From a virus (lineage: Duplodnaviria; Heunggongvirae; Uroviricota; Caudoviricetes), in the IMG/VR virus record IMGVR_UViG_2778261179_000011: 21,526 nucleotides of DNA; one strand, 5' to 3'. The position numbers and the translations under genes are program-made. Below are positions 1-20,131 of the stretch, one piece after another; position 1 is the first letter of the stretch, and every line of letters starts with the position of its first letter. The notes beneath the pieces were generated by a model that did not search any database, had not been told where the DNA came from, and saw nothing but the letters and a program-made list of their open reading frames with translations.

Positions 1-142
1 TGACAAAGTCATCGGGCATTATCTGAACATAAAACACTATCAATAAGTTGGAGTCATTACCAAACAAAAGAACGAGTTAAAAGTTGAAATTACTGGAGAT
101 AAGAAACATCCTAGTCTAGGGGATAAAATCCGCGCTGCGGCG

Positions 143-457
143 TTGCATCTCGAAATCCCCACACTGATTGAAGACAATATATGTCCTCAATTCTGGGCTA
201 TCAAGAACGATGGGCAATGGTCTGACATCCCAGAAGCTATAGCCAAATATCGTAACGACTTAGTGCACCCCAAAGCGAGGATAAAATCACAGAACCAACA
301 CGCGCTTACTATTGAGATGTGGCGATTATCTGTTTGGTATCTGGAGCTCTTTATGTTGCGCTTGATTGGATATCAGGATGTCTATTCAAACAGGCTAACG
401 GCTAAATGGCTTGGTGAGGTCGAGCATGTCCCATGGGCCGGTAGCAAATCATCCTAG
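143..457 (+). CDS. Hypothetical protein, 104 aa; doubtful gene or 5'-degraded remnant
   Basis: ORF begins with TTG and has no convincing Shine-Dalgarno sequence. The same frame is open upstream to a stop at 44-46 with no ATG/GTG/TTG. No recognisable motif. Confidence 0.25.
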   Translation: MHLEIPTLIEDNICPQFWAIKNDGQWSDIPEAIAKYRNDLVHPKARIKSQNQHALTIEMWRLSVWYLELFMLRLIGYQDVYSNRLTAKWLGEVEHVPWAGSKSS

Positions 458-490
458 CAACTAATTTGCATTCTATTGCTATCGCAAGGG

Positions 491-513
491 AATTTAGCTA
501 GTTTAGCTAAATT
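491..513. promoter_or_regulatory. Perfect 10-bp inverted repeat (AATTTAGCTA-gtt-TAGCTAAATT), candidate operator
   Basis: Read directly from sequence. Lies 30 bp upstream of the ATG at 543 and overlaps an AT-rich -10-like TATAAA at 513-518. Confidence 0.35.
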
Positions 514-542
514 ATAAAAACGAGCCGTAAGCGAACATTCAG

Positions 543-782
543 ATGAACGAGCAAGAAATTTACGCACAAATCAAAAAAGCTCTGCAAGAGGCACCTCGCA
601 ATCAATACACCGCTGAGCTGCATCTGCAAATGATCAAATATGCTGATGAGCTAAAGAACATCACAGCCAAAGAGTTTTGTGAAGGGGTGGGCCTGCGGAG
701 CAGCTTTGGCACCGAATTTAGCAAAATGCGCAATCTGACTCAGCGCTTGAAAGCTGCCGGGCTCGATACAGCCAAGCTATAA
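543..782 (+). CDS. Small hypothetical protein, 79 aa; possible regulator
   Basis: ATG start, preceded by the inverted repeat at 491-513 and followed 52 bp later by hsdM. No family recognised from sequence. Confidence 0.4.
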   Translation: MNEQEIYAQIKKALQEAPRNQYTAELHLQMIKYADELKNITAKEFCEGVGLRSSFGTEFSKMRNLTQRLKAAGLDTAKL

Positions 783-834
783 CGACTCAAATTTAATCGT
801 GCCGGGCCAATGCTCGGTAATGTAAGGAACAACC

Positions 835-3255
835 ATGGCCATTAAGAAAACCGAACTTTACTCCTCCCTTTGGGCCAGCTGCGATGAGCTGCGTGGCGGT
901 ATGGATGCCAGCCAGTACAAAGACTATGTGCTGACCATGCTGTTTATGAAGTATGTCTCCGATAAGTACAAAGGCGACCCTTACGGCATGATTGTGGTGC
1001 CGCCAGGTGCCAGCTTTGACGATATGGTTGCCTTGAAAGGCGACAAAGAAATCGGCGATAAAATCAATAAAATCATCAGCGCGCTGGCCGAAGAAAACGA
1101 CCTCAAAGGTGTCATCGACGTTGCCGACTTTAACGATGAAGACAAGCTCGGCAAAGGCAAAGAGATGATCGACCGTCTGTCTAAGCTGATCGGTATCTTT
1201 GAAGGGCTAGACCTATCTGCCAACCGCGCCGATGGCGATGACCTACTGGGTGATGCTTACGAATACCTAATGCGCCACTTTGCTACTGAATCGGGTAAAT
1301 CTAAAGGGCAGTTTTATACCCCAGCCGAAGTCTCGCGGATTATGGCGAAAATCATTGGTATTAATGCGCAAACACCACAAGACGCTACGGTCTACGACCC
1401 CACCTGTGGCTCTGGCTCGCTATTGTTAAAAGCCAGTGATGAAGCGCCGCGCGGCTTGTCGATTTTTGGCCAAGAAATGGATAACGCCACCAGTGCCTTG
1501 GCGCGTATGAACATGATCCTGCACAACAACGCCACCGCCAAAATCTGGAAAGGCAACACCATTGCTGACCCGCAATGGAAAGAGGCAAACGGCCAACTTA
1601 AGACTTTTGATTTCGCCGTGGCCAACCCGCCGTTTTCCAACAAAAACTGGACCAGCGGCATTAACCCGAACGACGACGAATTTGGCCGTTTCAGTTGGGG
1701 CATTCCACCCGAGAAAAACGGCGACTACACCTTTTTACTGCACATCATTAAAAGCCTAAAAAGCACCGGTAAAGGCGCGGTCATTCTGCCTCACGGCGTT
1801 TTGTTCCGTGGCAACGCCGAAGCGCGCATTCGTGAAAACCTGATTAAACAAGGCTACATCAAAGGCATTATCGGTTTGCCGGCCAACCTGTTTTATGGCA
1901 CCGGCATTCCTGCCTGTATTATCGTGATTGATAAAGAGCACGCGAACGCTCGCAGCGGCATCTTTATGGTCGATGCCAGCAAAGGCTTTGCCAAAGACGG
2001 CAATAAAAACCGCCTGCGCAGCCAAGATATTCATAAAATCGTTGATGTCTTTACCAAGCAGCTAGAACTGCCGCGCTACTCGCGTATGGTGCCACTCAGT
2101 GAAATCGCCGGTAACGACTACAACCTCAATATTCCGCGTTATATCGACTCCAGCGAACCGGAAGACCTGCACGATTTAAGCGCCCATCTGCAAGGCGGCA
2201 TTCCAAACCGCGATATTGATGCTTTAGAGCGTTACTGGCAGGTGTTCCCGAGTATTCGCGCCTCCTTGTTTGAGCCTGCCCGTGAAGGTTACAGCAAAGC
2301 CTTGGTCAAAGCCTCCGAGGTGAAAAGCACCATCCTGAACCATGACGAGTTCAAAACCTTCGCCGCACAAAGCTTAATACCCTTTACAGAATGGGCGCAG
2401 CGTTCAAACCTCCACGCCATAGCGCAAGATGAACCGCCAAAACAGATTATTCATCGTATCAGCGAAGACCTGTTACAAAGCTATGCGCAAACGCCACTGC
2501 TGAGTAAATACGATATTTACCAGATCCTGATGGATTACTGGGCGGAGTCAATGCAAGACGATGTGTACGTGCTAGTGCAAGACGGCTGGCCAGCAGGCAA
2601 AGTGCTGCGTGAGTTAGTCGTCAAAAAAGGCGAAAAACTGAAAGAATCGCCCGATTTAGTGATTGGCAAAGCCAAATACAAAGCCGAACTCATTCCTCCG
2701 GCGTTGATCGTCGCGCGCTTTTTTGCCGCCGAACAAGTCAAAGTCGATACGCTGCAATCGCTATTGGATAGCGCCAGCCAAGAGCTTGAAACCTACCTTG
2801 AAGAAAACTCGGGTGAAGACGGTTTACTAAACGATGCGCTGAACGACAAAGACAAAGTCACCAAAGCCACAGTCACGGCACGTTTAAAACTCGCCACCGA
2901 CTCAGATGAAAAAGCCGCGCTAAAACAAGCCAAAAAGCTGTTTGATGCTGAGGGTGATGCCAAAAAAGCCCTAAAAGACGCGCAAGACGCGCTCGATTTA
3001 GCGGTGTTTAAGCAATACCCCCAACTCAGCATCGATGAGATCAAATCCATGATTGTGGACGATAAATGGCTGGCAACACTTGAACGTAATATCGTTGCTG
3101 AAATCGAGCGCGTTACCCAGCAACTGGCCAATCGTGTCAAGGAGCTGGAAGAGCGTTATAGCGAGCCACTGCCTGCTCTTACCCAATCAGTAGAAAACTT
3201 GAGCGATAAAGTCGCAGGTCACTTAAAAGCTATGGGCTTGGAGTGGACGGTATGA
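835..3255 (+). CDS. hsdM: Type I restriction-modification system, N6-adenine DNA methyltransferase subunit HsdM (806 aa, long C-terminal extension)
   Basis: Strong RBS (AAGGAA) before the ATG. Motif I DPTCGSGSLL (about 1396-1425), catalytic motif IV NPPF (1624-1635), GQFYTPAEV motif. Extra C-terminal ~280 aa is K/E/A-rich and coiled-coil-like. Confidence 0.9.
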   Translation: MAIKKTELYSSLWASCDELRGGMDASQYKDYVLTMLFMKYVSDKYKGDPYGMIVVPPGASFDDMVALKGDKEIGDKINKIISALAEENDLKGVIDVADFNDEDKLGKGKEMIDRLSKLIGIFEGLDLSANRADGDDLLGDAYEYLMRHFATESGKSKGQFYTPAEVSRIMAKIIGINAQTPQDATVYDPTCGSGSLLLKASDEAPRGLSIFGQEMDNATSALARMNMILHNNATAKIWKGNTIADPQWKEANGQLKTFDFAVANPPFSNKNWTSGINPNDDEFGRFSWGIPPEKNGDYTFLLHIIKSLKSTGKGAVILPHGVLFRGNAEARIRENLIKQGYIKGIIGLPANLFYGTGIPACIIVIDKEHANARSGIFMVDASKGFAKDGNKNRLRSQDIHKIVDVFTKQLELPRYSRMVPLSEIAGNDYNLNIPRYIDSSEPEDLHDLSAHLQGGIPNRDIDALERYWQVFPSIRASLFEPAREGYSKALVKASEVKSTILNHDEFKTFAAQSLIPFTEWAQRSNLHAIAQDEPPKQIIHRISEDLLQSYAQTPLLSKYDIYQILMDYWAESMQDDVYVLVQDGWPAGKVLRELVVKKGEKLKESPDLVIGKAKYKAELIPPALIVARFFAAEQVKVDTLQSLLDSASQELETYLEENSGEDGLLNDALNDKDKVTKATVTARLKLATDSDEKAALKQAKKLFDAEGDAKKALKDAQDALDLAVFKQYPQLSIDEIKSMIVDDKWLATLERNIVAEIERVTQQLANRVKELEERYSEPLPALTQSVENLSDKVAGHLKAMGLEWTV

Positions 3256-4643
3256 CAAATTTTTCGGGAAAACCTCTTTCTCCAAAAACAGGGAACGCCG
3301 CTTGCGGCAGCCCGCAGGGCGGAGGCAGGGATAGCCGACGTAATGGAGTGGCGGAAGTGAGTTCGACATATCTAGCGGAAATGGCTTCGCCCACAGTTCC
3401 CGTTGGATTTAAGCCAACAGAAGTTGGGGTGATTCCTGAAAATTGGGAAGTAATTCAACTTGGTGATTGCACATCTTATGTTGGATCGGGGAAAACTAAT
3501 ACGAAATCCAGAGGTGAATACCCCCTATATGGCTCGACTGGCTTAATTGGAAGTTGCGAAAGACCTGAATACTCTGGTGAAGCGTTGCTAGTTGCGCGTG
3601 TTGGTGCAAATGCTGGAAGGTTGAATTATGTTTGTGGTGAATATGGTGTTTCGGATAACACAATATTAGTTAAAACTAAGCCAGAACATAGCATTGATTA
3701 CTTAAAATATTGGTTGATACGAAAAAATCTAAACACTCTAGTTTTTGGGTCAGGTCAGCCGCTCATAACAGGAACACAACTTAAAGAATTGGCTCTGCCT
3801 CTCCCATCGAAGACAGAACAAGCCGCCATTGCCAATGCCCTATCCGATGTCGATGCGCTGATCGGCGAGCAGGAAAAACTGATCGCCAAAAAACAGGCCA
3901 TCAAAACCGCCACCATGCAACAACTCCTCACCGGCCGCACCCGCCTGCCGCAGTTCGCCCTGCGTGAAGATGGCACGCCCAAAGGCACCAAGCCAAGTGA
4001 ATTGGGCGAAATACCTGAGGATTGGGAGGTTGTGGAGTTTGGCTGCACATTGAAGGAATTTCGAAATGGGTATGCTTTCTCGGCAAATGGATACTCCTCT
4101 ACTGGAACACCAATCATTACTATGGCTCAAATTGGACTTTCAGGCTCATTTCAGTTTGATATCTCCAAGGTGAATAAATGGGATTCGGAACAACAGGATT
4201 CGCTTAAGGAGTTTTGGGTTCGAGACGGTGATCTCCTAATAGCGATGACTGATGTGACTCCAGATAAAAATCTTATCGGTCAAATGACAATCGCTAAGTT
4301 AGGTGGTATAGCACTTCTAAACCAACGCGTTGGCTTGCTTCGGCTTAAAAATGAAATTGCTTATACGGGATACTTTAGTTTTCTGAGCTGTTTGCCTGTT
4401 TGGAAAACATATTGTAAGGGTGTTGCTTCGTTAGGGGTGCAGGCAAATATCGGTACGTCAGATATCAGAAAAGCAAAGGTGCCGCTCCCATCCATAAAAG
4501 AACAAACCGCCATTGCCTCTATCCTCTCCAATATGGACGCAGAGATTCAGGCGCTGGAACAACGCCTTGGCAAAACCCGCCAAATCAAACAAGGCATGAT
4601 GCAAGAACTGCTCACGGGTAAAACACGGCTGCCAATCACGTAA
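3252..4643 (+). CDS. hsdS: Type I restriction-modification specificity subunit HsdS (two target-recognition domains)
   Basis: ATG at 3252 overlaps the hsdM stop (ATGA). Two TRD starts (VIPENWEVIQLGD; EIPEDWEVVEFG) and two conserved repeats ending LLTG(R/K)TRLP. Start is uncertain: the first ~42 codons are low-complexity and GC-rich, and ATG at 3378 (MASPTVPVGF...) is an alternative. Confidence 0.85.
   Translation: MTNFSGKPLSPKTGNAACGSPQGGGRDSRRNGVAEVSSTYLAEMASPTVPVGFKPTEVGVIPENWEVIQLGDCTSYVGSGKTNTKSRGEYPLYGSTGLIGSCERPEYSGEALLVARVGANAGRLNYVCGEYGVSDNTILVKTKPEHSIDYLKYWLIRKNLNTLVFGSGQPLITGTQLKELALPLPSKTEQAAIANALSDVDALIGEQEKLIAKKQAIKTATMQQLLTGRTRLPQFALREDGTPKGTKPSELGEIPEDWEVVEFGCTLKEFRNGYAFSANGYSSTGTPIITMAQIGLSGSFQFDISKVNKWDSEQQDSLKEFWVRDGDLLIAMTDVTPDKNLIGQMTIAKLGGIALLNQRVGLLRLKNEIAYTGYFSFLSCLPVWKTYCKGVASLGVQANIGTSDIRKAKVPLPSIKEQTAIASILSNMDAEIQALEQRLGKTRQIKQGMMQELLTGKTRLPIT
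3809..3950 (+). repeat. HsdS central conserved repeat (direct repeat copy 1)
   Basis: Encodes TEQAAIANALSDVDALIGEQEKLIAKKQAIKTATMQQLLTGRTRLP; clearly related at the protein and DNA level to copy 2 at about 4494-4634. Confidence 0.7.
4494..4634 (+). repeat. HsdS C-terminal conserved repeat (direct repeat copy 2)
   Basis: Encodes KEQTAIASILSNMDAEIQALEQRLGKTRQIKQGMMQELLTGKTRLP; direct repeat of the 3809-3950 segment, flanking TRD2. Confidence 0.7.
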
Positions 4644-4653
4644 GGACACGAAT

Positions 4654-6072
4654 ATGTCACCAGACACCTCCACACATAGGCTGCATGAGCAAGTTAAATC
4701 GGTTTATCAGCTCCTGAGCGAGCCACAGCTGCATATTCCTAACTACCAGCGCCCATACAAATGGACAGCAGACAACCTCCAAGCGCTACTCACCGATTTA
4801 CGCAACTACCGCGATAAATCGGCGTATCGCTTGGGTACGGTGGTGTTTCATCACAACTCAGAGCATTTGGATATTGTTGATGGCCAACAACGCACCCTAA
4901 CCTTAATGCTACTGGTTAAAGCCATTGCTGAACACATGCAGGAGCATAAAGACTTAATCCAGCGCAAAGACTTAAGCGAGCAAATAGCCGAACTGGTTAC
5001 CAATATTGATGCTTTTTTAAGCACACAACCCGACAGCCCCCACAGCGGCATCACCCATACCAACCTTTATCAAAACTACCAAGCGGCTAAGCGGGCAGTG
5101 GCACAGCCTGAGTTTGGCGAAGCAGATATTGCGTTTTTACTGCATAAATGCCAAGTCGTCACCTTTGTGTTGAATGATATTTCTGAGGCGTTTCAGTTTT
5201 TTGACTCACAAAACAGCCGTGGCCGCGACTTAAACCCGCACGACTTACTCAAGGCCTATCATTTACGCGAGTTTCCCGAGCATGAAGCGGCACTCAAAGC
5301 CGAAGCCGTTAAAGACTGGGAAAGCCAAAAAAGCCACGAACTAGCCAGGGTATTTGCCCACTACCTGTATCGCATTCGCCACTGGGTTAATAACCAGCAG
5401 GCCCACTACTTTAGCAAAGACGATATTGGGCTATTTAAGGGCGTGAATCTGTATCAGGCAGCCCATTATCCTTACACCCAAGCGCTGCGCATTCAGCACG
5501 AGCAGGTGGATAACTACAATAATCACTTTCAGCGCAAGCTAGACCAAAACACGCTGGCGTTTCCGTTTCAGCTCGATCAAATCGTAATTAATGGGCGGCG
5601 CTTTTTTGAAATGATTGCGCACTACCAAGCGCTGATTAACAGCCTAACCGGCGAGGCATTAACCAAACAGTCCAGCATTCCTTTATCAGACCGTGCACAG
5701 CAGATTCTTAACGCGCTCAATAGCTATGGGGCACGGCATCGAACGGGCGATCGTTATATCCGCATGCTGTTTGACTGTGCGCTGCTGTATTACTTCGATA
5801 AATTTGGCAAAGAGCAACTATCAGAAGCGATCGAAAAGTTTTTCATCTGGGCCTATAGCTGCCGCTTAACCAGCCACGCTGTGTATATCGAAACCATGGA
5901 TAACCACGCCCGCAACAGCAAACTGTTTAAATTAATCCAGTCCGCCATTAGCCCAAAACAAGTACTGGCGCTGCCTTTAAAAACCCTCACCCCCGCTGAT
6001 CTCAAGGCAAGTAAGATGGGCGATTTGGTTAAGCTATTCGAAGGAATGAAATACTATGTCGAATCCAAATAA
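4654..6072 (+). CDS. DUF262 (ParB/Srx-like nuclease fold) protein, 472 aa, GmrS-like; no recognisable HNH C-terminus
   Basis: RBS AAGGA 8 nt upstream. N-terminal ...IPNYQRPYKW... and DGQQR motif (4879-4893), both hallmarks of DUF262. Starts 10 bp after the hsdS stop. Confidence 0.75.
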   Translation: MSPDTSTHRLHEQVKSVYQLLSEPQLHIPNYQRPYKWTADNLQALLTDLRNYRDKSAYRLGTVVFHHNSEHLDIVDGQQRTLTLMLLVKAIAEHMQEHKDLIQRKDLSEQIAELVTNIDAFLSTQPDSPHSGITHTNLYQNYQAAKRAVAQPEFGEADIAFLLHKCQVVTFVLNDISEAFQFFDSQNSRGRDLNPHDLLKAYHLREFPEHEAALKAEAVKDWESQKSHELARVFAHYLYRIRHWVNNQQAHYFSKDDIGLFKGVNLYQAAHYPYTQALRIQHEQVDNYNNHFQRKLDQNTLAFPFQLDQIVINGRRFFEMIAHYQALINSLTGEALTKQSSIPLSDRAQQILNALNSYGARHRTGDRYIRMLFDCALLYYFDKFGKEQLSEAIEKFFIWAYSCRLTSHAVYIETMDNHARNSKLFKLIQSAISPKQVLALPLKTLTPADLKASKMGDLVKLFEGMKYYVESK

Positions 6073-8086
6073 GATAACGAGCTTTTCCATTAGGCAGCTG
6101 TTAGCAGATCACGCCTCCTATCAGATCCCTATGTATCAGCGTAACTATGCGTGGGAAAAAGGCGAAATTGATCAGCTGATTCAGGATGTTGTTGATTATC
6201 AAGTCCAAAAAAAGCCTTACTACATCGGCAGCTTAGTGGTGTATCCACGGGATAATCAGCTATTTGAAGTGATTGACGGCCAGCAACGCTTTACCACGCT
6301 CACGCTAATTGCTTTATGTTTGAAGCACTTCAGCATGTTGGCTGAAAAAGAAGGGACAACGTCTGTTAATAAAGTTGACATGAGTTGGTATCAAACGCCT
6401 AATTTATGCTTTGAAAGCCGCGCTAACTCAACCCTCACCCTTGAAAAAATAACAGCCTTTAGCGCCTCTACTGCTAAGCATTTGTCACTAGATCCAGCCG
6501 ATATTAATCAGTGCAACAGCGCTATTTTAAATGGCTTTAACTTGGTGCAGCAGGCGTTATCTGAGCTTGCTAAACAGCATGACCTACATCAGTTTTGTGA
6601 GTACTTATTTGATTGGGTAAAAATCACCCGCGTCCCCGTTCCCCACGACACTGATTTAACCCATTACTTTGAGGCGATGAATAATCGCGGGGAACAGCTA
6701 GAAAAACACGAAGTGCTAAAAGCCAGAATGCTCTCTGTGCTGCAAGATGCCAGCCACCAACACCCTGAGAATAAAAGCGCGCAGGAAGTGCTCAATAAAG
6801 TGTGGAATGCCTGCGCCAATATGGAGCGTTATGTGCAGTTTGGCTTTAACCCCATCGAGCGCCAGCAGATCTTTGGCAATGAGTGGCAAAAATTTACCGC
6901 TAACAGCTTTACTGAGCTTCATCACGCGCTAATAGCCCCTGAAAACAGAGCAGCCAACACCACAGTCGACACTCATAGTGATGAGCCAGCCGCCAAATCA
7001 CTGGCTGAAATGTTGAACACACCTTATACCGATAAACAGGCAGAAACAGATAAAAATCAACCATCGCCTGAACGCTTTAACAGCGTGATTAATTTTTCTA
7101 ACTTTTTATTGCAGGTCTTAAGGGTTTACAGCCAAAAAGACATTTCTTTGGACGATAAGCAGTTAATTGATCAGTTCGAAACGCATATTTTGCACGCAGA
7201 CGAGGCAGCAGAAAAAGTTAAAGCGTTTGTGTTTGCCTTATTAAAATCCAAATACCTATTTGATCACTACGTGATAAAACGCGATGCGACGGCTCAGGAC
7301 AAGTGGGGCATCAAGCAATTAAAACGCTATGAGCGCAATAGCCAAAGCTACGTCAATACCTTTGCCCAAAACGATCAGCCTGATACCACTCACTCGCAAT
7401 TAAATCAGCGCATTGTTTTATTACTAAGCGCCTTTCATGTCTCTACGCCCACCATGAACTACAAGCACTGGTTAACCGGCGTTTTGCATATCCTGCATCA
7501 ACTGCACGCCAAGCAACTCGATGCAGACAACTATTTAAAGGCACTCGAAAAGCTCGCCAGAAGCTTTATCTATGGGCGTTATTTGGCTAAAACAGCGGCT
7601 GATTATTACACACTGATTTTTGATAACCCGAAGGACTATCAACCCTTAGCGGACACGTGTTTTTTACGGTGTCGCTTGCGCTATGGTTCGATTAAAAACA
7701 ACTTTGTATTTAACTATTTAGATTATTTGCTGTGGTGCACCACCCAAGATAAGGACCTGGTGTATCGTGAGTTTGAATTTAGTTTTAGAAGCTCGGTCGA
7801 GCATTTCTACCCACAAGATCCCTACTCTGGCGAACCATTAGAGGATGGGCCTTTGCATAGTTTTGGTAACCTATGCCTAATTAGCCACAGCAAAAACTCT
7901 AAGCTCAGCAACTACCAACCCACGGCTAAAAAAGAGCACTTTCAAGCAGCCAGCACCCAAGGCAAAATCGACTCACTCAAGCTGTATGAAATGACTCGGG
8001 TTAAAGTATGGGATGCAGATGCTATCCACAAGCATGAAACCCAAATGCTGGGATTGTTTATTAAGGATTCTGAGGGAGAAAAATGA
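6056..8086 (+). CDS. DUF262 + DUF1524 (His-Me finger/HNH-like) protein, 676 aa; GmrSD-like putative modification-dependent (Type IV-like) restriction endonuclease
   Basis: N-terminal ...IPMYQRNYAW... with DGQQR (6275-6289). C-terminal SVEHFYPQ...GNLCLISHSKNSKLSN (about 7793-7915), typical of the DUF1524 nuclease module. Overlaps the previous gene by 17 bp and hsdR by 4 bp. Confidence 0.75.
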   Translation: MSNPNKITSFSIRQLLADHASYQIPMYQRNYAWEKGEIDQLIQDVVDYQVQKKPYYIGSLVVYPRDNQLFEVIDGQQRFTTLTLIALCLKHFSMLAEKEGTTSVNKVDMSWYQTPNLCFESRANSTLTLEKITAFSASTAKHLSLDPADINQCNSAILNGFNLVQQALSELAKQHDLHQFCEYLFDWVKITRVPVPHDTDLTHYFEAMNNRGEQLEKHEVLKARMLSVLQDASHQHPENKSAQEVLNKVWNACANMERYVQFGFNPIERQQIFGNEWQKFTANSFTELHHALIAPENRAANTTVDTHSDEPAAKSLAEMLNTPYTDKQAETDKNQPSPERFNSVINFSNFLLQVLRVYSQKDISLDDKQLIDQFETHILHADEAAEKVKAFVFALLKSKYLFDHYVIKRDATAQDKWGIKQLKRYERNSQSYVNTFAQNDQPDTTHSQLNQRIVLLLSAFHVSTPTMNYKHWLTGVLHILHQLHAKQLDADNYLKALEKLARSFIYGRYLAKTAADYYTLIFDNPKDYQPLADTCFLRCRLRYGSIKNNFVFNYLDYLLWCTTQDKDLVYREFEFSFRSSVEHFYPQDPYSGEPLEDGPLHSFGNLCLISHSKNSKLSNYQPTAKKEHFQAASTQGKIDSLKLYEMTRVKVWDADAIHKHETQMLGLFIKDSEGEK

Positions 8087-11000
8087 GTAACGTCGGCCAG
8101 CGTGAACGCATGACCCAACAGCGCATTGTTGAGCTGTTTCAAACGGATTTAGGCTACCGCTATTTAGGTAACTGGGAATACCGCGATAACAATAAAAACA
8201 TAGAAGTTGAGCTACTAACGAGCTGGCTGAAAAAGCGCGGCATAAGCGAGGCGCTGATTAATCGCGTGATTCGTCAGCTAGACAGCGCAGCGGCGCTGGG
8301 CGAAGGTAAAAAGCTCTATTACGCCAACAAAGAGGTTTATCGCCTGCTGCGTTACGGCGTGAAAGATAAAGAAGGTGCTGGCCATCTTAATGAAACCGTG
8401 TGGCTGATTGACTGGAAAAATCCAGAAGCAAACGATTTTGCCATTGCCGAAGAAGTCTCTATCAAGGGTGAAAACAAAAAATGCCCAGACATAGTGCTGT
8501 ATGTCAATGGTATCGCTCTAGGTGTGATTGAGCTGAAACGCTCTTCGGTGTCTGTCTCTGAGGGTATTCGCCAGAACCTCGATAACCAAAAGAAAGATTT
8601 TATCCGTAACTTCTTCACCACCATGCAATTGGTGATGGCGGGTAACGACACGCAAGGCTTGCGTTACGGCACGATTGAAACCCCGGAGAAGTATTATCTT
8701 GAATGGAAAGAAGAGATAGAGAACGGGTATAGCCATAAGCTCGACTTTCACCTGAGCCGCGTATGCAATAAAGCGCGTTTTTTACAGATCATCCACGATT
8801 TTATTGTTTTCGATGCGGGTATTAAAAAGACCTGTCGTCACAATCAGTTCTTTGGTATTGAAGCGGCAAAACGCCATATCGCAAGGCGTGAAGGCGGCAT
8901 TATTTGGCATACGCAAGGTTCTGGCAAAAGCCTCACTATGGTGTGGTTGGCCAAATGGATACGTGAAAATGTCAAAGACGCCCGTGTATTGATCGTGACC
9001 GATCGTACCGAGCTGGATGAGCAGATAGAAAAAGTATTCACCGGTGTTGAGGAAGATATTTATCGCACCAAAAGCGGTGCCGATTTGGTGGCGACGCTCA
9101 ATCAGCCCAACCCTTGGTTGGTATGCTCTTTAGTCCATAAATTTGGTCGGCAGTCTGATTCGGAAAACGATACCGCGACGGATGAGTTTATTGCCGAGTT
9201 AAAGAAATCCCTACCATCGGACTTTAAAGCCAAAGGCGACCTATTCGTATTTGTTGATGAATGCCACCGTACTCAATCGGGCAAGTTGCACGAAGCGATG
9301 AAGTCCATTCTGCCAGAAGCCATGTTTGTCGGCTTCACCGGCACCCCCTTGATGAAGAAAGACAAGAAAAAATCGGTTGAGGTATTTGGCCCTTACATTC
9401 ACACCTATAAGTTTGATGAAGCTGTGGCCGATGGCGTTGTGCTCGATTTACGCTACGAAGCACGAGACATCGACCAAAATGTCACGTCGCAGAAAAAGGT
9501 CGATGAATGGTTTGAAGCCAAAACTCGCGGCTTATCTCGATTAGCGAAAACCCAGTTGAAACAGAAATGGGGCACCATGCAAAAGGTGCTGTCCAGTAAA
9601 TCGCGTTTGCAGCAGATTGTGAATGATATCTTGCTGGATATGGACACTAAGCCACGCCTGATGGATGGCTACGGCAATGCCATGTTGGTCTGCTCTAGTG
9701 TCTATCAAGCTTGTAAAGCTTATGAAATGTTCAGCCAAACAGATTTAGCCGGCAAGGTGGCTATTGTCACCAGTTTTCAGCCGACCGCTGCGAGCATTAA
9801 AGGGGAAGAAACCGGTGAAGGCTTAACGGAAAAGCTCTTTAAGTACGATATTTACCGCAAAATGCTTGCGGATTACTTCGAGCAACCGGAAGACAAGGCC
9901 GCTAACCGAGTTGAAGAGTTTGAAAAAGAAGTTAAAAAACAATTTATTGATGAGCCAGGGCAAATGCGCTTGCTCATCGTGGTCGATAAGTTGCTGACTG
10001 GCTTCGACGCCCCTTCGGCTACCTATTTGTATATCGACAAACAGATGGCTGATCACAATCTGTTTCAGGCCATTTGCCGCGTGAACCGCTTGGATGGCGA
10101 TGATAAAGAATACGGTTACATCATTGACTACAAAGATCTGTTCCGCTCGTTGGATAAAGCGATTTCTGATTATACTCAAGGCGCATTTGATGGTTATGAC
10201 AAGGAAGACGTTGCAGGGCTGCTGAAAGATCGTTTAGAGCAAGCCAAGCTCGATTTGGATAATGCGCTGGAAATGGTGCGCGCCTTGTGTGAGCCGGTAA
10301 AAGCGCCACGCAACACGGAAGACTACATTTATTATTTTTGTGGTAAGTCAGGTCTGAACCAAGACGAGCTCACCGAGAAAGAAGCACTGCGTTTAACGCT
10401 TTATCAGAACGTTGCCAAACTGCTGCGTGCGTTCGCCAATATCGCCAATGAAATGCCTGATGCAGGCTATTCTGCGCAAGATGTAGACTCGATAAGAACA
10501 GAAGTGGCTCATTTTGAAAAAGTCCGTGACGAAGTAAAACTGGCCAGTGGCGATTTGGTAGAAATGAAACGCTTTGAGCCTGCGATGCGCCATTTGTTAG
10601 ATATGTATATTCGTGCGGATGACAGCGAAGTACTGATGGATTTTGAAGAGCTGGGGCTTATTGAGCTCATTGTCGAAAAAGGCGCTGATGCCGTGGAGGC
10701 TTTGCCTGATAGTATTCGCAAGAATCAGGAAGCCATGGCCGAAACCATCGAAAATAACGTGCGTAAAACCATCGTTGATGAAAACCCGGTTAACCCCAAG
10801 TATTACGAGCAAATGTCGGTGTTATTGGATGAGCTGATTGAGCTTCGTCGCCAAAAAGCGATTGAATATCAAGAGTATTTGGAAAAAATCCGCGAGCTGT
10901 CTCGTAAGGTTATACGTCCGGAGCAGACAGCGGCTAACTATCCGCCATCGATGGACTCTAATCCAAAACGCGCGTTTTACGATAATTTTGGTCAAGATGA

Positions 11001-11175
11001 ATTGCTGGCTACCAAAATAGATAGTGCCATTCGTTATACCAAAAAAGCGGATTGGGTCGGAGATCGCTTTAAGGAGCGAGAAATTGCCAATGCGGTGCGA
11101 GAAGAAACGACGGGGTATGAGGTGGATATTCAGGGTGTAATGGAATTGGCAAAAGCGCAAAAAGAGTACCATTGA
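8083..11175 (+). CDS. hsdR: Type I restriction enzyme endonuclease/translocase subunit HsdR (1030 aa)
   Basis: N-terminal PD-(D/E)xK nuclease motif (PDIVLYVNGIALGVIELK). SF2 helicase motifs: Walker A HTQGSGKSLT (about 8911-8940), motif II FVDECHR (about 9253-9273), motif III FTGTP. ATGA overlap with the upstream gene. Confidence 0.9.
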   Translation: MSNVGQRERMTQQRIVELFQTDLGYRYLGNWEYRDNNKNIEVELLTSWLKKRGISEALINRVIRQLDSAAALGEGKKLYYANKEVYRLLRYGVKDKEGAGHLNETVWLIDWKNPEANDFAIAEEVSIKGENKKCPDIVLYVNGIALGVIELKRSSVSVSEGIRQNLDNQKKDFIRNFFTTMQLVMAGNDTQGLRYGTIETPEKYYLEWKEEIENGYSHKLDFHLSRVCNKARFLQIIHDFIVFDAGIKKTCRHNQFFGIEAAKRHIARREGGIIWHTQGSGKSLTMVWLAKWIRENVKDARVLIVTDRTELDEQIEKVFTGVEEDIYRTKSGADLVATLNQPNPWLVCSLVHKFGRQSDSENDTATDEFIAELKKSLPSDFKAKGDLFVFVDECHRTQSGKLHEAMKSILPEAMFVGFTGTPLMKKDKKKSVEVFGPYIHTYKFDEAVADGVVLDLRYEARDIDQNVTSQKKVDEWFEAKTRGLSRLAKTQLKQKWGTMQKVLSSKSRLQQIVNDILLDMDTKPRLMDGYGNAMLVCSSVYQACKAYEMFSQTDLAGKVAIVTSFQPTAASIKGEETGEGLTEKLFKYDIYRKMLADYFEQPEDKAANRVEEFEKEVKKQFIDEPGQMRLLIVVDKLLTGFDAPSATYLYIDKQMADHNLFQAICRVNRLDGDDKEYGYIIDYKDLFRSLDKAISDYTQGAFDGYDKEDVAGLLKDRLEQAKLDLDNALEMVRALCEPVKAPRNTEDYIYYFCGKSGLNQDELTEKEALRLTLYQNVAKLLRAFANIANEMPDAGYSAQDVDSIRTEVAHFEKVRDEVKLASGDLVEMKRFEPAMRHLLDMYIRADDSEVLMDFEELGLIELIVEKGADAVEALPDSIRKNQEAMAETIENNVRKTIVDENPVNPKYYEQMSVLLDELIELRRQKAIEYQEYLEKIRELSRKVIRPEQTAANYPPSMDSNPKRAFYDNFGQDELLATKIDSAIRYTKKADWVGDRFKEREIANAVREETTGYEVDIQGVMELAKAQKEYH

Positions 11176-11888
11176 TGCCTAAGGTAGAAATTGGTTCTAT
11201 TGCGATGCAGTTAAATCGTAAGGCAATTAAAAACCTTCATATCAGCGTGTTGCCACCTGATGGGCGTGTGCGTGTTTCTGCTCCTGAATCTATGACAGAA
11301 ACCGCAATCCGTATGGCAGTGATCAGCCGCATTCCTTGGATCAAGAAACAGCAGAGTGTTTTTGCCAAACAACCTCGCCAATCTGATCGAGCAATGGTTA
11401 GCGGTGAATGTCATTACCTGTGGGGCAGGCGTTATCGTCTGAATCTTATCGAGCGTTCCGGAAAGCATGAAATCAAGCTAGGTCGTGGTCGATTGCATTT
11501 ATATGTCAATCCCGCAACAACGCTTGAGAACAAGGCACTGGTACTGAACTCATATTATCGAGATGCACTTAAAACGCGAATCGCTGAGTTATTGCCTGTT
11601 TGGGAAGATAAGATCGGCGTTAAAGCTGTAGATTGGGGAATTAAAAAGATGAAAACCAAGTGGGGCAGCTGCAATATTCAGGCAAAGCGCATTTGGCTAA
11701 ATTTAGAGCTTGCTAAAAAGCCACCGGAGTGTTTGGAGTACATCCTAGTGCATGAATTGGTGCACTTGCTTGAGCGTAATCACAATGAACGCTTCAAGGG
11801 GTATATGGACAAGCTACTTCCCGATTGGCGAGAGCGCAGAGATTTGTTGAATCGGATGCCCTTGGCGCACAACGATTGGGTGTACTAG
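11175..11888 (+). CDS. M48-family / YgjP-like (DUF45) zinc-dependent hydrolase, ~237 aa
   Basis: HExxH zinc-binding motif HELVHLLE (11751-11774) preceded by WGSC. ATG at 11175 overlaps the hsdR stop (TGATG); the track ORF starts 3 nt earlier at TTG 11172. This family is commonly found directly downstream of hsdR. Confidence 0.75.
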   Translation: MPKVEIGSIAMQLNRKAIKNLHISVLPPDGRVRVSAPESMTETAIRMAVISRIPWIKKQQSVFAKQPRQSDRAMVSGECHYLWGRRYRLNLIERSGKHEIKLGRGRLHLYVNPATTLENKALVLNSYYRDALKTRIAELLPVWEDKIGVKAVDWGIKKMKTKWGSCNIQAKRIWLNLELAKKPPECLEYILVHELVHLLERNHNERFKGYMDKLLPDWRERRDLLNRMPLAHNDWVY

Positions 11889-12284: not shown

Positions 12285-13079
12285 ATGACAGCACAAAATA
12301 CTAAAACAATTCAATACCGCCTGCGTAATGGCCAGAGTGTCGAAGTGACCATCAATAATGATGGTGTACCTGGCGAAAAGGTTTCTATCTCTGATCTGGC
12401 TATCGAAAAAACCATCATGTGCCACCTTGGCTTTACTGAAGAAGTGAGCAAAAAGCATGGTGTAGCTATCTGGCGCACAATGGATACTGGAATGCGCAGA
12501 TTCATTACTGCTCGTACCCCTGGTATGACCATGATGGACCTCATACAGATTGCGCCGCTGTTTGAGTGTGAACCTTTGGATGTATTCAGCAATCCAGCTA
12601 TCTGCCAGCAGTTATATGGTGAGATGAAACTCGCGGTTACCCCCATTGTGCTGCATGAAGGATCGCTTGCTGGCGTATGGAAAGTAGAGCGAATTTCAAG
12701 CTACATGCCATTCCACATCCATGTCAACGGCGTAATCGCAGGTGAAAATCAACCTGTTTCAGTTACAAAGTCAGACCTCAATCGCGCAATTCTTGAAGCA
12801 AGTTGTCGAGTTATCGGCCTGGGCAAACAGTCTTATGTTTCCTTCCCGGCTGGTCCTGAAGGCCCGGCAGAAATTCTGATTATGGATGCCGATCTGCTCT
12901 GGCAAATACAGTTTCTGATTGGCAAAAGCATCATCCGCGCTGAAGAACTCGATCAGTACATTACCTGCACGATGACGGATGAAGTCAAAAGTGTGGCTAT
13001 AGCCAATGCCCGGAAGCTATGTCGTGCTGCATTAACAGAACTGCAAGAAAACACCACGGAAGAAGTGGAAAGCGATTAA
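12285..13079 (+). CDS. Hypothetical protein, 264 aa, function unknown
   Basis: Clean ATG ORF after a ~400-bp AT-rich intergenic region; ends 3 bp before a strong hairpin terminator. No motif recognised. Confidence 0.5.
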   Translation: MTAQNTKTIQYRLRNGQSVEVTINNDGVPGEKVSISDLAIEKTIMCHLGFTEEVSKKHGVAIWRTMDTGMRRFITARTPGMTMMDLIQIAPLFECEPLDVFSNPAICQQLYGEMKLAVTPIVLHEGSLAGVWKVERISSYMPFHIHVNGVIAGENQPVSVTKSDLNRAILEASCRVIGLGKQSYVSFPAGPEGPAEILIMDADLLWQIQFLIGKSIIRAEELDQYITCTMTDEVKSVAIANARKLCRAALTELQENTTEEVESD

Positions 13080-13081
13080 AA

Positions 13082-13105
13082 AAAATCCCGCCGATTGGCG
13101 GGATT
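13082..13105. terminator. Bidirectional rho-independent terminator (10-bp perfect stem AAATCCCGCC / GGCGGGATTT, 4-nt loop)
   Basis: Read directly from sequence. Minus-strand orientation is followed by a U-run of 8 or more (A-run 13076-13084 on plus); plus-strand orientation by TTTCTTC. Sits between convergent genes 12285-13079 (+) and 13109-13426 (-). Confidence 0.65.
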
Positions 13106-13108
13106 TCT

Positions 13109-13426
13109 TCAATATACGATCTGGTCTACATGATCCCCAAAATCATCGTCGTCATCGTCGTCGTCCTCATCGCCACCCTCTACTGCTGGCCAATCAACAA
13201 ACCAGCCAGCGTAAAGATGCAGCGTTCGGAGAACATCACTTGCGGGAGCATCAAGGGTGTTAACGAATCCCATATAGCTATTGGGATTTGCCCCAGCTAT
13301 GGCTTCAGCGATCATGTCCTCGGTAATGTCACCGGAGATAATGCTTAAACGCCCGGAAACTTCTTCATTATCATCAAATTCGATAATGGCATCTCCGCCT
13401 AATGGCGCTGCGATTTTAATCTGCAT
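13109..13426 (-). CDS. Highly acidic small protein, 105 aa, with a D8 tract (DEDDDDDDDDFGD); last gene of the dar-like operon
   Basis: About 26 Asp/Glu against about 3 Lys/Arg. Poly-Asp encoded by a (GAY)n run at 13142-13171. Overlaps the upstream 995-aa gene by 11 bp. Confidence 0.5.
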   Translation of the reverse strand: MQIKIAAPLGGDAIIEFDDNEEVSGRLSIISGDITEDMIAEAIAGANPNSYMGFVNTLDAPASDVLRTLHLYAGWFVDWPAVEGGDEDDDDDDDDFGDHVDQIVY

Positions 13427-16403
13427 TATTTAGCTCCTTTGCCACACCTAATAACAGTTCCAGCAATCCGTCACCATTCATCAGTGATGCGGCAGCGGCC
13501 TCTTTGTCATGATACAACTGAAGAGCCATAGAGAATACTTCCGTTGCTGACGTTTTGGAAATAGTCGGGGATTTCTGCCGAATTTTCCCAGTGTTACTTA
13601 CTGAGGCTGGCGGGTATACCTTCGCCATATAAATATTACTCAATCGAGATCTGAAGCACCATTCAGGCTTGCCACGCCCACCGATATTAACGAAAGATGG
13701 CTTATCCCCTTCAACATTGGCCTTCAGGAATGACCGGGCTTTCTCTAACAAACCAGGGTTACTGTACTCAAGATGATGACCCAGCTCGTGCCACAGTGCA
13801 CTTGCATTTTCATCGTTCAAATTGACAGCAACAACACCATTAAGATTTGCATATGCCCTTCCCTGGTGGTGAACCACCTTTGATAAGGTCGAAATTTTAC
13901 CGCCGGTCAGGCGATAAATATCAGCAAGTTCCTTGCGCAGGTCTATCCCACCATTCTGTCCAGCGCGGGCTTCTTCCACTTCTTCCGTGATAAAAGAGTC
14001 GGCCCACTCAAGAGCTTTTTCTTCAGATACGGATGAGTTGGCGATCGCACTGTTCATGGCAGATAACACTTTCTCGTGGACCGAACCCATACTTCGCTGA
14101 TTCATTTGCCAGCGTGTCTGCGGGTTATATGAGAATCGCTTAAGTAGTTGGTCAAGCTGCTCAAGTTCTTCTTCACTGACATACTTTTTAGCCTCACCAA
14201 TAATGCCAGGGAGAATATTGCCGTTAGGATTAAACGCTCGCGAAAGGAAGAGTTTCAGCGCCCCCATGCCCTCCGATGCTTCAATATCACCAATAACCCG
14301 GTTAACAATGGCCGCACTCTTCGGATTAGCATCCGCCAACGCTCTGGCTACGATTTGCAGGGACGATACGACCTCACGCTGCATATCAGTCCTGATCTCA
14401 TCAATAAACTCTGGCGTTATGCCGTGCTCTTTAAGGATATCCCTGCCTTCCGCCGTTACCCCATCGATATCACCGACATGTTTATTAACCTGACTTTGCA
14501 ATGCCTTAAATGCCTTCAGAATTCCACGGGCATCATCAGCTTTACTAACGGCCTTCCTGAATACTGGCAAGAAGTCAGAGTTAACCTCATTTTGTTGATC
14601 GGCCCACTGAATGGAGGCTTCTTTCATCTCGTCCAGAGTCAGATCACCCAACGCGGTATGGTCTGTGAATATGAGCGACAACCTCTGAACCATTTCTGCC
14701 AATGGTGATGCCGAATGCGCCGCGCTAAGGAATGCTTTCACCCTGGTTGGGCGAATGGAAAACCAGTCAATAGCTGGTGGCATATCTCCGTTTTTTATCG
14801 CCTGCGCTATCTCATCAAAGCCGTCGCGCCCAAGGGAGGATGCGTGATTTAACAATCCGCGAAGTAACGAATTGCTGATACCGAATAATCGGCACCATTT
14901 TTTTACGTCGGCAACAGGCATTCGGACAAAATGCGCAAGCACTTGTACAAGCTGCTCATCCTGGGGATCGGTGCGGGATAGCAGCCTGATCAGATGAATA
15001 ATGTCTTTGATTCCGGATGCCCGATGTAATAGCAAGCTGGTATATGGAGCAACACCGTTGTAACTACCGCCGGAAGCTGACTCGAAAAGACCGCCGGATA
15101 TCCCTTGCATACCTTCGTTTTCCAGTTCCTGAGATACCTGGCGAAGGATATCCTGTAACGACACATCACCGCCGCCAAACATATCCCCGAGCGCCTGGCC
15201 CTGGTGCTGTAACTCATCATTGATACGTTGTGCCATCAACTTAAAGGCGGTGGCCATACGCTTCGCGCTACGGTTATTCGCGACGATAAACAACGCGAGT
15301 GCTTTCACTTCCGGGGCCGTTTCGCTGAACATATCCCCCTGAGCAATAACATCGGTAATATGTTGGCCTGACTCCTTCGATTGCCTTACCAGGTCTACCG
15401 CATCTTTCAATGCAGCCAGCGCCTTTTTATCGAGGCTATCCGCTGTTTCAATGCTATCAACGATAGTTGTCACAGCCTGCTTGTGCGCTTCTCCTGATAA
15501 AGCCTGCATCTGGACAAAATCATTGGCCGCCGCATTAAGCGCCGTCAGAACATTACGCATATCCGGATCAGGTTCTTCTGCAACCATCCTTACCAAGCGC
15601 GCATCCTTATATGCCTTGGCAAAGATCGCGTTTTGTATCCGGTCAACAAGTTGCCGTGTTGGTCGCCCATCTTCAGTTACAAGTCCAGCCGCCTGTGTGG
15701 CACCAACTTGCGTCATAAATCCGCGAATAAACGCGTCATTACTGCGGCTAAGCAGATCTCCGCTTTCTGACGGGTTAAAAAGCGCCATCATCGCCGGTGT
15801 TATGCTGTCGGCATCAACAAAAGCCTTTTCACTGGCTGCCATTTCCTGAAGATCAGAAATATTTGAGTCTTTGGCAAACTGAACGCGGTCAACCTTAGTT
15901 AACCGGCGGCGCACCAGTACCGGAGCCGTCATTGATTCAACCTTTTCAGGACGTATGCCGAATTCGCTCGCATGTTCAATCAGGTACTCCCGATACCGAT
16001 CCGCATTGCCGTCCTGATAGGCTTTAATGATCCCCATGGTTCGTCCATTACCTGACTCAACGGCATTGTCCTCACCAATTATCGGCGCTCCATGGCTGGA
16101 TAAACCGGAGTCGGTAAGCTGAGCAGGCCGCAAATCCTTGGATATCTGGTTAACCTGAAGAATACTGGATGCGCGGGTCCGGTCGCGCGGCTGAAGTTCC
16201 TGGGGATAGTCCGGATTAATTTTCCCGTCCAGAGTATTGGATACCAAAAGAGCTGAGGCATCGACGATATCAAACGCTGTTTTTACCTCGTCTCCCTTCG
16301 CTGTCACCACATACGAAACCCGCCCATAATCGGGCAGGTTCTTTAGCAGCTCGATCAGCGTTTCTATGCTGGTGGCCATTACCACCTGATCGCTTAAGCT
16401 CAT
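13416..16403 (-). CDS. ddrB: DdrB-like large protein, 995 aa, with an HExxH zincin motif near the C-terminus
   Basis: ATG start. HELGHH encoded at 13773-13790 (verified by reverse-complementing the DNA). Size and position after the ddrA-like and darA-like genes match the P1 darA operon as I recall it. Confidence 0.6.
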   Translation of the reverse strand: MSLSDQVVMATSIETLIELLKNLPDYGRVSYVVTAKGDEVKTAFDIVDASALLVSNTLDGKINPDYPQELQPRDRTRASSILQVNQISKDLRPAQLTDSGLSSHGAPIIGEDNAVESGNGRTMGIIKAYQDGNADRYREYLIEHASEFGIRPEKVESMTAPVLVRRRLTKVDRVQFAKDSNISDLQEMAASEKAFVDADSITPAMMALFNPSESGDLLSRSNDAFIRGFMTQVGATQAAGLVTEDGRPTRQLVDRIQNAIFAKAYKDARLVRMVAEEPDPDMRNVLTALNAAANDFVQMQALSGEAHKQAVTTIVDSIETADSLDKKALAALKDAVDLVRQSKESGQHITDVIAQGDMFSETAPEVKALALFIVANNRSAKRMATAFKLMAQRINDELQHQGQALGDMFGGGDVSLQDILRQVSQELENEGMQGISGGLFESASGGSYNGVAPYTSLLLHRASGIKDIIHLIRLLSRTDPQDEQLVQVLAHFVRMPVADVKKWCRLFGISNSLLRGLLNHASSLGRDGFDEIAQAIKNGDMPPAIDWFSIRPTRVKAFLSAAHSASPLAEMVQRLSLIFTDHTALGDLTLDEMKEASIQWADQQNEVNSDFLPVFRKAVSKADDARGILKAFKALQSQVNKHVGDIDGVTAEGRDILKEHGITPEFIDEIRTDMQREVVSSLQIVARALADANPKSAAIVNRVIGDIEASEGMGALKLFLSRAFNPNGNILPGIIGEAKKYVSEEELEQLDQLLKRFSYNPQTRWQMNQRSMGSVHEKVLSAMNSAIANSSVSEEKALEWADSFITEEVEEARAGQNGGIDLRKELADIYRLTGGKISTLSKVVHHQGRAYANLNGVVAVNLNDENASALWHELGHHLEYSNPGLLEKARSFLKANVEGDKPSFVNIGGRGKPEWCFRSRLSNIYMAKVYPPASVSNTGKIRQKSPTISKTSATEVFSMALQLYHDKEAAAASLMNGDGLLELLLGVAKELNNAD

Positions 16404-20057: not shown

Positions 20058-20131
20058 AAGTTCCCTCCTACGTTGTCAGGAGGTAATGGTATGCAAAGTA
20101 ACTTCTCAACCGGTTATGTTGCATAAGAGAC

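Follow-up and report, generated by a model that had tools for sequence, protein, structure and literature searches.

The locus

The window analysed here, by which we mean the whole 21,526-nucleotide (nt) stretch of IMG/VR virus record IMGVR_UViG_2778261179_000011, comes from a P1-like phage-plasmid (Punavirus); in a megablast search of phage records, the region is 96-99% identical to P1, P7, SJ46, RCS47 and others. Our subject is hxr, a small gene for a very acidic protein in the anti-restriction (dar) operon, and its relation to the adjoining gene ddrB. The operon runs lydA-lydB-hdf-darA-ddrA-ddrB-hxr, the neighbours having been identified by profile as DdrB, DdrA, DarA, Hdf, LydB and LydA. 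As its last gene, hxr belongs to the Dar operon and is under the late promoter, LPdar (Table 1). A GC-rich hairpin starts two bases past the hxr TGA stop codon; it folds with -21.0 kcal/mol and is then followed by U8 on the hxr strand, and with -17.1 kcal/mol on the strand of the convergent gene isaA. This terminator was seen by direct RNA folding, a consensus terminator scan having missed it, and eight of nine divergent loci examined likewise have a hairpin 3' of hxr.

Table 1. Features of the hxr region and of the rest of the window (positions are those of the window)
Feature	Position	Strand	Evidence or details
hxr (P7 odaA) coding sequence, last cistron of the late dar operon	13109..13426	-	Translation; phrog_2292 match; P1/SJ46/P7 annotation; ratio of non-synonymous to synonymous polymorphism (pN/pS)
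Hxr residues 1-80, predicted compact alpha/beta domain, net -10	13187..13426	-	AlphaFold2; family alignment
Hxr residues 81-105, predicted disordered polyanionic tail, net -13, no Lys/Arg, tip IVY	13112..13186	-	Predicted local distance difference test (pLDDT); tail survey
Acidic codon run DEDDDDDDDD, in-frame length-polymorphic tract	13142..13171	-	Codon table; allele survey
Translational-coupling junction	13416..13439	-	Shine-Dalgarno AAGGAG 13434-13439; hxr ATG 13424-13426; ddrB TAA 13416-13418
ddrB, 995 amino acids (aa): N-terminal DdrB-type ParB domain, hypervariable middle, C-terminal zincin	13416..16403	-	PF18763 E 3.4e-39; phrog_2299
Late promoter LPdar, -22 and -10 elements, drives the lydA-to-hxr operon	20086..20104	-	19-nt core identical to P1 (NC_005856)
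Bidirectional intrinsic terminator of convergent hxr and isaA	13078..13108	.	CCCGCC/GGCGGG stem; flanks A8 and a T-rich run
hsdM	835-3255		Type I restriction-modification (R-M) island
hsdS	3243-4643		Type I R-M island
Two DUF262-type genes between hsdS and hsdR	4654-6072, 6056-8086		PADLOC HEC-06/Orf5/SspE-like
hsdR	8083-11175		Type I R-M island
YgjP/SprT-like zinc peptidase	11172-11888		

On the minus strand, 13109-13426 translates to a 105-aa protein, MQIKIAAPLGGDAIIEFDDNEEVSGRLSIISGDITEDMIAEAIAGANPNSYMGFVNTLDAPASDVLRTLHLYAGWFVDWPAVEGGDEDDDDDDDDFGDHVDQIVY, with a TGA stop; its C-terminal end reads ...VEGGDEDDDDDDDDFGDHVDQIVY. The protein contains 19 Asp, 7 Glu and 3 Lys/Arg, Asp and Glu together making up 24.8% of the residues, and has a net charge of -23 and an isoelectric point (pI) of 4.05. 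Its charge density of -21.9 per 100 aa is the most extreme of the 15 main open reading frames (ORFs) of the window for which this was computed, the next being that of DdrA (-11.6); the predicted disordered tail accounts for 13 of the 26 acidic residues. The original prediction, made from the letters of the window alone, had described a very acidic 105-aa protein of net charge -20 or below, with DEDDDDDDDD near its C-terminus, at the end of a dar-like operon. The computed charge and pI agree with this; the acidic run is codons 86-95, at the low-coordinate end because the gene is on the minus strand; and LPdar, the gene order and the terminator place the gene last. The operon had been recognised, but the annotated P1 gene hxr had not.

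The ORF matches phrog_2292 (‘unknown function’) over its full length (E 5.7e-62, residues 1-105 of a 105-position profile), is 96% identical to the largest homologue cluster (848 sequences) and, judged by these matches, is the orthologue of P1 Hxr and P7 OdaA. It is a known gene, annotated and present in more than 500 sequenced plasmids. The P1 record calls it hxr (P1_gp021, YP_006490, ‘possible repressor; homolog of Xre’), P7 has odaA (‘unknown function’), and SJ46 and RCS47 have ‘putative repressor protein Hxr’. P1 hxr agrees in its late operon, in its place behind ddrB and in the 11-nt overlap, but its product has 102 aa with a run of five Asp (D5), compared with 105 aa and D8 in the window; only a few other positions differ. 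Downstream of hxr, P1 has IS1 and isaB, whereas these are absent between hxr and isaA in the window and the two genes meet at their common terminator. The converging isaA (12285-13108) encodes 264 aa here, compared with a 963-bp gene in P1.

Intact hxr lies directly after ddrB in the 30 IMG/VR loci found with Hxr as the query, and directly 3' of ddrB in all 79 P1-group IMG/VR loci with a complete ddrB when DdrB was the query instead. Outside the acidic tract, pN/pS is 0.26 (20 distinct alleles from close relatives), and frameshifted or truncated versions are rare singletons compared with the cluster of 848 intact sequences. hxr is a genuine protein-coding gene: the question of whether homologues conserve it as coding sequence, raised with the original prediction, is answered by the pN/pS, the 848-member cluster and tract variants that stay in frame. 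An antisense ORF of 109 aa at 13019-13348 (+), which runs across the isaA stop codon and the terminator, was rejected as an artefact; its Ile/Val run, IIVVIVVV, is the reverse complement of the GAY codons.

The Hxr family and its predicted structure

A word-indexed search of 5.8 billion proteins returned 15 matches for the Hxr family, HMMER, run exhaustively with a profile over 1.84 billion representatives, returned 14 proteins, all of them family members, and a second indexed search with a diverse alignment returned 30 matches (about 30 clusters). By these searches the family is tiny and confined to P1-like phage-plasmids. Compared with the window Hxr, members from Klebsiella, Citrobacter, Rosenbergiella and metagenomes show 29-61% identity, and all have a common plan: a domain of 75-80 aa with a net charge of -3 to -10, followed by an acidic tail of 20-25 aa. 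Within the domain, P8, G53, V55, N56, V65, L66, R67, W75, W79 and P80 are invariant. The tails of all 18 members analysed are 20-25 aa long with a net charge of -8 to -14 and no Lys or Arg, while the tail sequence itself is variable and often includes Pro. In 16 of the 18, the tail ends in two hydrophobic residues and then Asn, Tyr or His, the exceptions being proteins P0022 (EIN) and P0025 (ETN). The tip is IVY in the window, IVN in most relatives and VVN, EIN or DVN in others. What is conserved is the Lys/Arg-free acidic tail with its hydrophobic tip, rather than the poly-Asp run.

The structure of Hxr was predicted with AlphaFold2 from an alignment of 10 diverse sequences (pLDDT 74; five near-identical sequences gave pLDDT 60). 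Values are about 69-88 per 10-residue block over residues 1-80 and below 50 for residues 83-105, and the predicted fold runs beta-beta-beta-alpha-loop-alpha-beta. A Foldseek search of BFVD with this model gave no fold match (best E 0.37) and none was found in the PDB; at the sequence level, the PDB yielded no match to either the protein alone or the family profile. Pfam (at E up to 0.1), NCBIfam and PADLOC profile searches with the window Hxr also returned nothing; with Pfam at E up to 1, the only match in 10 family members was one chance hit to BofC_C. Profile comparisons of Hxr with DdrB, DdrA and DarA detected no relationship, and thus Hxr is no internal duplication of one of these Dar proteins. 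On the predicted model and the profile searches, Hxr is ruled out as a member of the Xre/helix-turn-helix (HTH), Ocr, ArdA or single-stranded DNA-binding protein (SSB) families.

One relative suggests how the domain may assemble. P0007, a protein of 184 aa (8001-8555 in the locus that we label L003), occupies the usual site after ddrB and is a tandem duplication of the Hxr domain, in which copy 1 is without a long acidic tail and copy 2 keeps the tail. This natural two-domain protein suggests that single-domain Hxr works as a dimer; the alpha/beta domain thus probably dimerises.

The poly-Asp tract

The tract is encoded by GAT GAG (GAC)3 GAT (GAC)2 (GAT)2, a (GAY)n run with one GAG at 13166-13168. 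Among the intact IMG/VR alleles surveyed, it ranges from D4 to D9 after a leading D-E/D, with changes that are always multiples of three, and it is the number of GAC units that varies. In the 79 DdrB-anchored loci, DE is followed by D5 in 35, by D6 in 14 and by D4 in 12, and seven have D8 without the Glu; the window allele, DE followed by D8, occurs in three and is therefore rare and among the longest. Three gene backgrounds, each otherwise identical, occur with both 7 and 8 acidic codons, which indicates that units of the tract have been gained and lost repeatedly. The comparison of tract length across related elements that had been proposed with the original prediction thus gives D4 to D9, in frame throughout. 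The GAY run had also been put forward as a potential slippage site; it stands as a hot spot of length variation, but one of in-frame drift, with no on/off switch, and this the allele survey supports. Such drift implies that the exact length of the tail is under no tight constraint. The acidic tail is the general feature, and the homopolymeric Asp run is the form that it takes in the P1 lineage.

Association of hxr with ddrB

The start of hxr lies within the end of ddrB, with an overlap of 11 nt in the window. The overlap is also 11 nt in most divergent elements, 8 nt in Serratia (locus L045) and Rosenbergiella (L051) and 14-17 nt in L003, L130 and L131. The coupling by an 11-nt overlap that had been pointed out earlier is therefore seen, and is kept in relatives down to about 30% identity; every divergent element examined has a Shine-Dalgarno sequence before hxr, and overlap, Shine-Dalgarno sequence and terminator recur in Klebsiella, Citrobacter, Rosenbergiella, Serratia and metagenomic relatives that are 18-63% identical. 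At the far end of this range, the Serratia ORF is a remote Hxr homologue (hhalign E 1e-4), and the ORF of Rosenbergiella metrosideri retains only a VL..L..G..F.WP motif, the acidity and the EIN end. The cargo 3' of hxr differs every time (porin, toxin-antitoxin pairs, CHAP, Arc and RepL; in the window, isaA and a type I R-M island). Despite this hot spot of cargo turnover just downstream, hxr follows full-length ddrB in every case examined.

Where ddrB is short, hxr is missing. Only the N-terminal part, about 445-461 aa, is present in L047-L050 (species-representative genomes of Enterobacter, Erwinia and, in two cases, Pantoea) and in the E. coli plasmid pEC361_3 (L133, 5841-7226), where the portal gene directly follows; in all of these, neither the C-terminal half of ddrB, with the metallopeptidase, nor hxr was found within 5 kb. 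An Aeromonas plasmid protein in which PBECR2 is fused to a DdrB-type ParB domain is likewise without the ddrB C-half and hxr. Of the PLSDB records, 504 contain hxr, 515 the C-half of ddrB and 609 its N-half; for about 136 of these 609, identity to the N-half is 60-80%. The elements with short ddrB form a separate lineage of P1-like elements.

The divergence of Hxr also follows that of the C-terminal part of DdrB. In pairwise comparisons of nine long-form elements, the Spearman correlation of Hxr identity is 0.87 with that of DdrB residues 841-995, 0.82 with 446-840 and 0.25 with 1-445; given 841-995, the partial correlation with 1-445 is -0.06. L003 provides a single case of the same kind. Compared with the window, its DdrB is about 98% identical up to residue 840, and dense mismatches occur only from about residue 890, just past the zincin motif HELGHH (residues 872-877 of the window DdrB); residues 841-995 are 76-78% identical and Hxr 63%. 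By this pattern, the C-terminal end of DdrB (the last ~105 aa) and hxr were swapped as one piece. As judged from sequence, hxr and the C-terminal part of DdrB are a conserved module, from which an interaction does not follow.

DdrB itself is a mosaic. Across L003, L035, L036, L040, L045, L046, L051, L130 and L131, residues 1-445 are 58-98% identical, whereas, L003 excepted, residues 446-840 are 15-32% and residues 841-995 28-58% identical; a packaged anti-restriction protein thus seems to contain a middle module that is hypervariable. The C-terminal domain of DdrB had no match in a sequence search of the PDB. Positions 4248-6433 of a Pseudomonas psychrotolerans plasmid (L134) hold two ORFs that overlap by 4 nt: the first encodes 620 aa and includes a metallopeptidase region like that of DdrB (HELAHH), and the second encodes an acidic protein of 108 aa. 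The second may be a positional analogue or a coincidence, and hhalign detected no similarity of the 108-aa ORF to Hxr (E 0.19). Antisense within the window ddrB, a 132-aa ORF at 15451-15849 (+) corresponds to iddB (‘internal to ddrB’) of the P1 annotation.

Possible roles of Hxr

According to current accounts, ejection of the DNA also delivers the Dar proteins, which act only in cis and by a mechanism that is still unclear (PMC12810830; PMC12707154). Recent reviews and the paper on the DarA and Hdf structures count six Dar proteins, with Hxr not among them (PMC12810830; PMC12707154). Iyer and colleagues described DdrB as an N-terminal ParB-like domain joined to a C-terminal zincin metallopeptidase, and proposed that the peptidase carries out the reported processing to ~76 kDa before packaging (PMC5512222). 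In the proteome of purified P1 virions (27 proteins), DdrB, DdrA, DarA, Hdf, Ulx and DarB are present and Hxr is not listed; identification required two unique peptides, and DdrA gave only two (PMC9024508). The same study tabulates Ulx as aiding the localisation of DarB (PMC9024508).

We favour the reading, plausible to us though short of probable, in which Hxr is a dedicated stoichiometric accessory of long-form DdrB and acts on its C-terminal peptidase part. The identity of the gene, its coding status, its place in the late operon, the conserved coupling, the two-part architecture and the co-occurrence and co-exchange with the DdrB C-terminus are shown here, whereas physical binding to DdrB, a role as chaperone or inhibitor, and a function for the tail are inferred. 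Translational coupling would cause Hxr to be made in fixed proportion to DdrB. Hxr would then bind the C-terminal, metallopeptidase-containing half of DdrB as a dedicated chaperone or regulator, and so might maintain DdrB in a soluble, inactive state, or govern how it is processed and loaded into the prohead. The acidic tail could serve as a flexible nucleic-acid-like or product-like arm that docks through its hydrophobic tip. Designs of this sort are familiar from E. coli SSB, T7 gp2.5 and HMGB1, in which a flexible polyanionic tail with a docking tip fills a site that is basic or binds DNA, either on a partner or within the same protein. By analogy, Hxr may have this design principle in common with them, although the body of the protein is unrelated and the terminal motif differs. 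Ulx beside DarB provides a precedent for a small helper next to a giant Dar protein: it too is a small P1 Dar protein, and the role it has in DarB localisation is the one proposed here for Hxr toward DdrB. However, Ulx has been seen in virions and has a genetic phenotype, and Hxr has neither on record. We take ulx to adjoin darB in the P1 gene order; it lies outside the window.

Several points weigh against an accessory role. The correlation of Hxr with DdrB rests on nine taxa, and the co-occurrence and co-exchange may simply reflect adjacency on the DNA, the block being lost or recombined together whatever its function. No paper characterising hxr was found in the literature searched, although Piya et al. 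2017 and Lobocka et al. 2004 may mention it. To these may be added, as neutral in effect, that CRISPR interference found hxr to be non-essential, like all dar genes (PMC10695390); no further phenotype of an hxr mutant was found in print.

One alternative is the one in the database records, that Hxr is an Xre-type transcriptional repressor, and we regard it as almost certainly wrong. The label, carried by P1, SJ46, RCS47 and other records, goes back solely to the original P1 annotation note of 28% identity over ~58 residues, copied to later records. With Pfam at E up to 1, none of 10 family members gave a match to HTH_3, HTH_19 or HTH_31. The predicted chain opens with three beta strands, and its only two helices stand on either side of a 17-residue loop, unlike the all-helical five-helix fold of such repressors. 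With its pI and its three basic residues, Hxr would be repelled by DNA, which disfavours Xre-type DNA binding, and the last gene of a late structural operon is not the context of a repressor. We thus consider the label unsupported by HTH search, predicted fold, pI and operon context. The comparison with an SSB-like acidic tail, made in the original prediction, fares little better. In general terms, a C-terminal tail that is flexible, acidic and tipped with hydrophobic residues does resemble the SSB-type design, which can serve as a lead, and such a tail might mimic that of SSB and compete for host proteins that dock there; yet there is no OB (oligonucleotide/oligosaccharide-binding) fold or Pfam SSB match, and neither the window tip nor those of the relatives (IVN, VVN, EIN, DVN) is the Pro-Phe tip. 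P1-like elements usually have their own ssb nearby, and none was seen in the window. Competition of this kind is very improbable.

A free DNA mimic of the Ocr (T7 gp0.3) or ArdA type deserves more attention, but we consider it unlikely. Its polyanionic surface and tail would fill the groove in which type I R-M enzymes, or another host enzyme that binds DNA such as RecBCD or a BREX (bacteriophage exclusion) component, hold their DNA, and would so titrate the enzyme. Like these proteins, Hxr is small, extremely acidic and carried by a mobile element that faces type I restriction; it has the high carboxylate density of Ocr, the predicted folded domain alone has a charge of -10, and the gene sits in an anti-restriction operon. 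Known DNA mimics have no common fold, so the missing fold match is compatible with mimicry. Sequence, Pfam and fold searches found no homology of Hxr to Ocr, however, and no ArdA Pfam domain or elongated three-domain fold. Half of the charge of Hxr is in a disordered tail of variable length and unconserved sequence, unlike the rigid arrays of Ocr and ArdA. Moreover, Hxr is a late product, not one made at once upon entry, and LPdar would act too late for incoming DNA unless the protein is packaged; and Dar protection is reported to work only in cis (PMC12707154), while a titrating decoy should work in trans.

Packaging is the core of another explanation, somewhat unlikely in our judgement, that Hxr is an overlooked seventh virion Dar component, packaged in the head with DdrB (held, for example, by the very basic Hdf), ejected along with the DNA and acting in cis. 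It shares its late operon with the packaged Hdf (pI 10.3), DarA, DdrA and DdrB, and packaged DdrA is likewise small and acidic (121 aa, net -14, pI 4.05). Absence from the 27 proteins of purified P1 virions, and of the name from the paper and its supplement (PMC9024508), speaks against this, as do the six Dar proteins of the reviews and the structure paper. A tryptic digest of Hxr, however, would give one convenient peptide (22 aa), the others being 4, 41 and 35-38 aa long and very acidic, and with a single convenient peptide the two-unique-peptide cut-off could have missed the protein. A further reading, which we hold to be unlikely, is that Hxr is an unrecognised seventh Dar component with a new fold: a polyanionic protein with a DNA-like tail that would be delivered with the C-terminal metallopeptidase module of DdrB or act through it. 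Such a protein would control when DdrB is cleaved and loaded, or would itself act in cis to protect incoming DNA against type I R-M or BREX. If this were true, the Dar mechanism, unresolved since 1987, would have been studied with one player missing.

Three results are of use beyond the existing annotation: the repressor label is corrected, the architecture of the family is defined, and hxr is found to be tightly associated with the C-terminal module of DdrB. Together they make hxr a simple, testable candidate for a missing Dar component, and bear on the P1-like phage-plasmids that spread resistance genes.

Other features of the window

The window starts with the last 61 bases of IS1 (60 of 61 match the P1 IS1 terminus). 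Between this and hsdM are two small ORFs, at 143-457 (+) with 104 aa and at 543-782 (+) with 79 aa, neither of which has a PADLOC match; positions ~588-906 are roughly 91% identical to Yersinia ruckeri plasmids. The type I R-M island listed in Table 1 follows, so that a type I R-M system of its own adjoins the anti-type-I-restriction operon on one phage-plasmid. Only 2 PLSDB plasmids cover at least 80% of window positions 1-11888.
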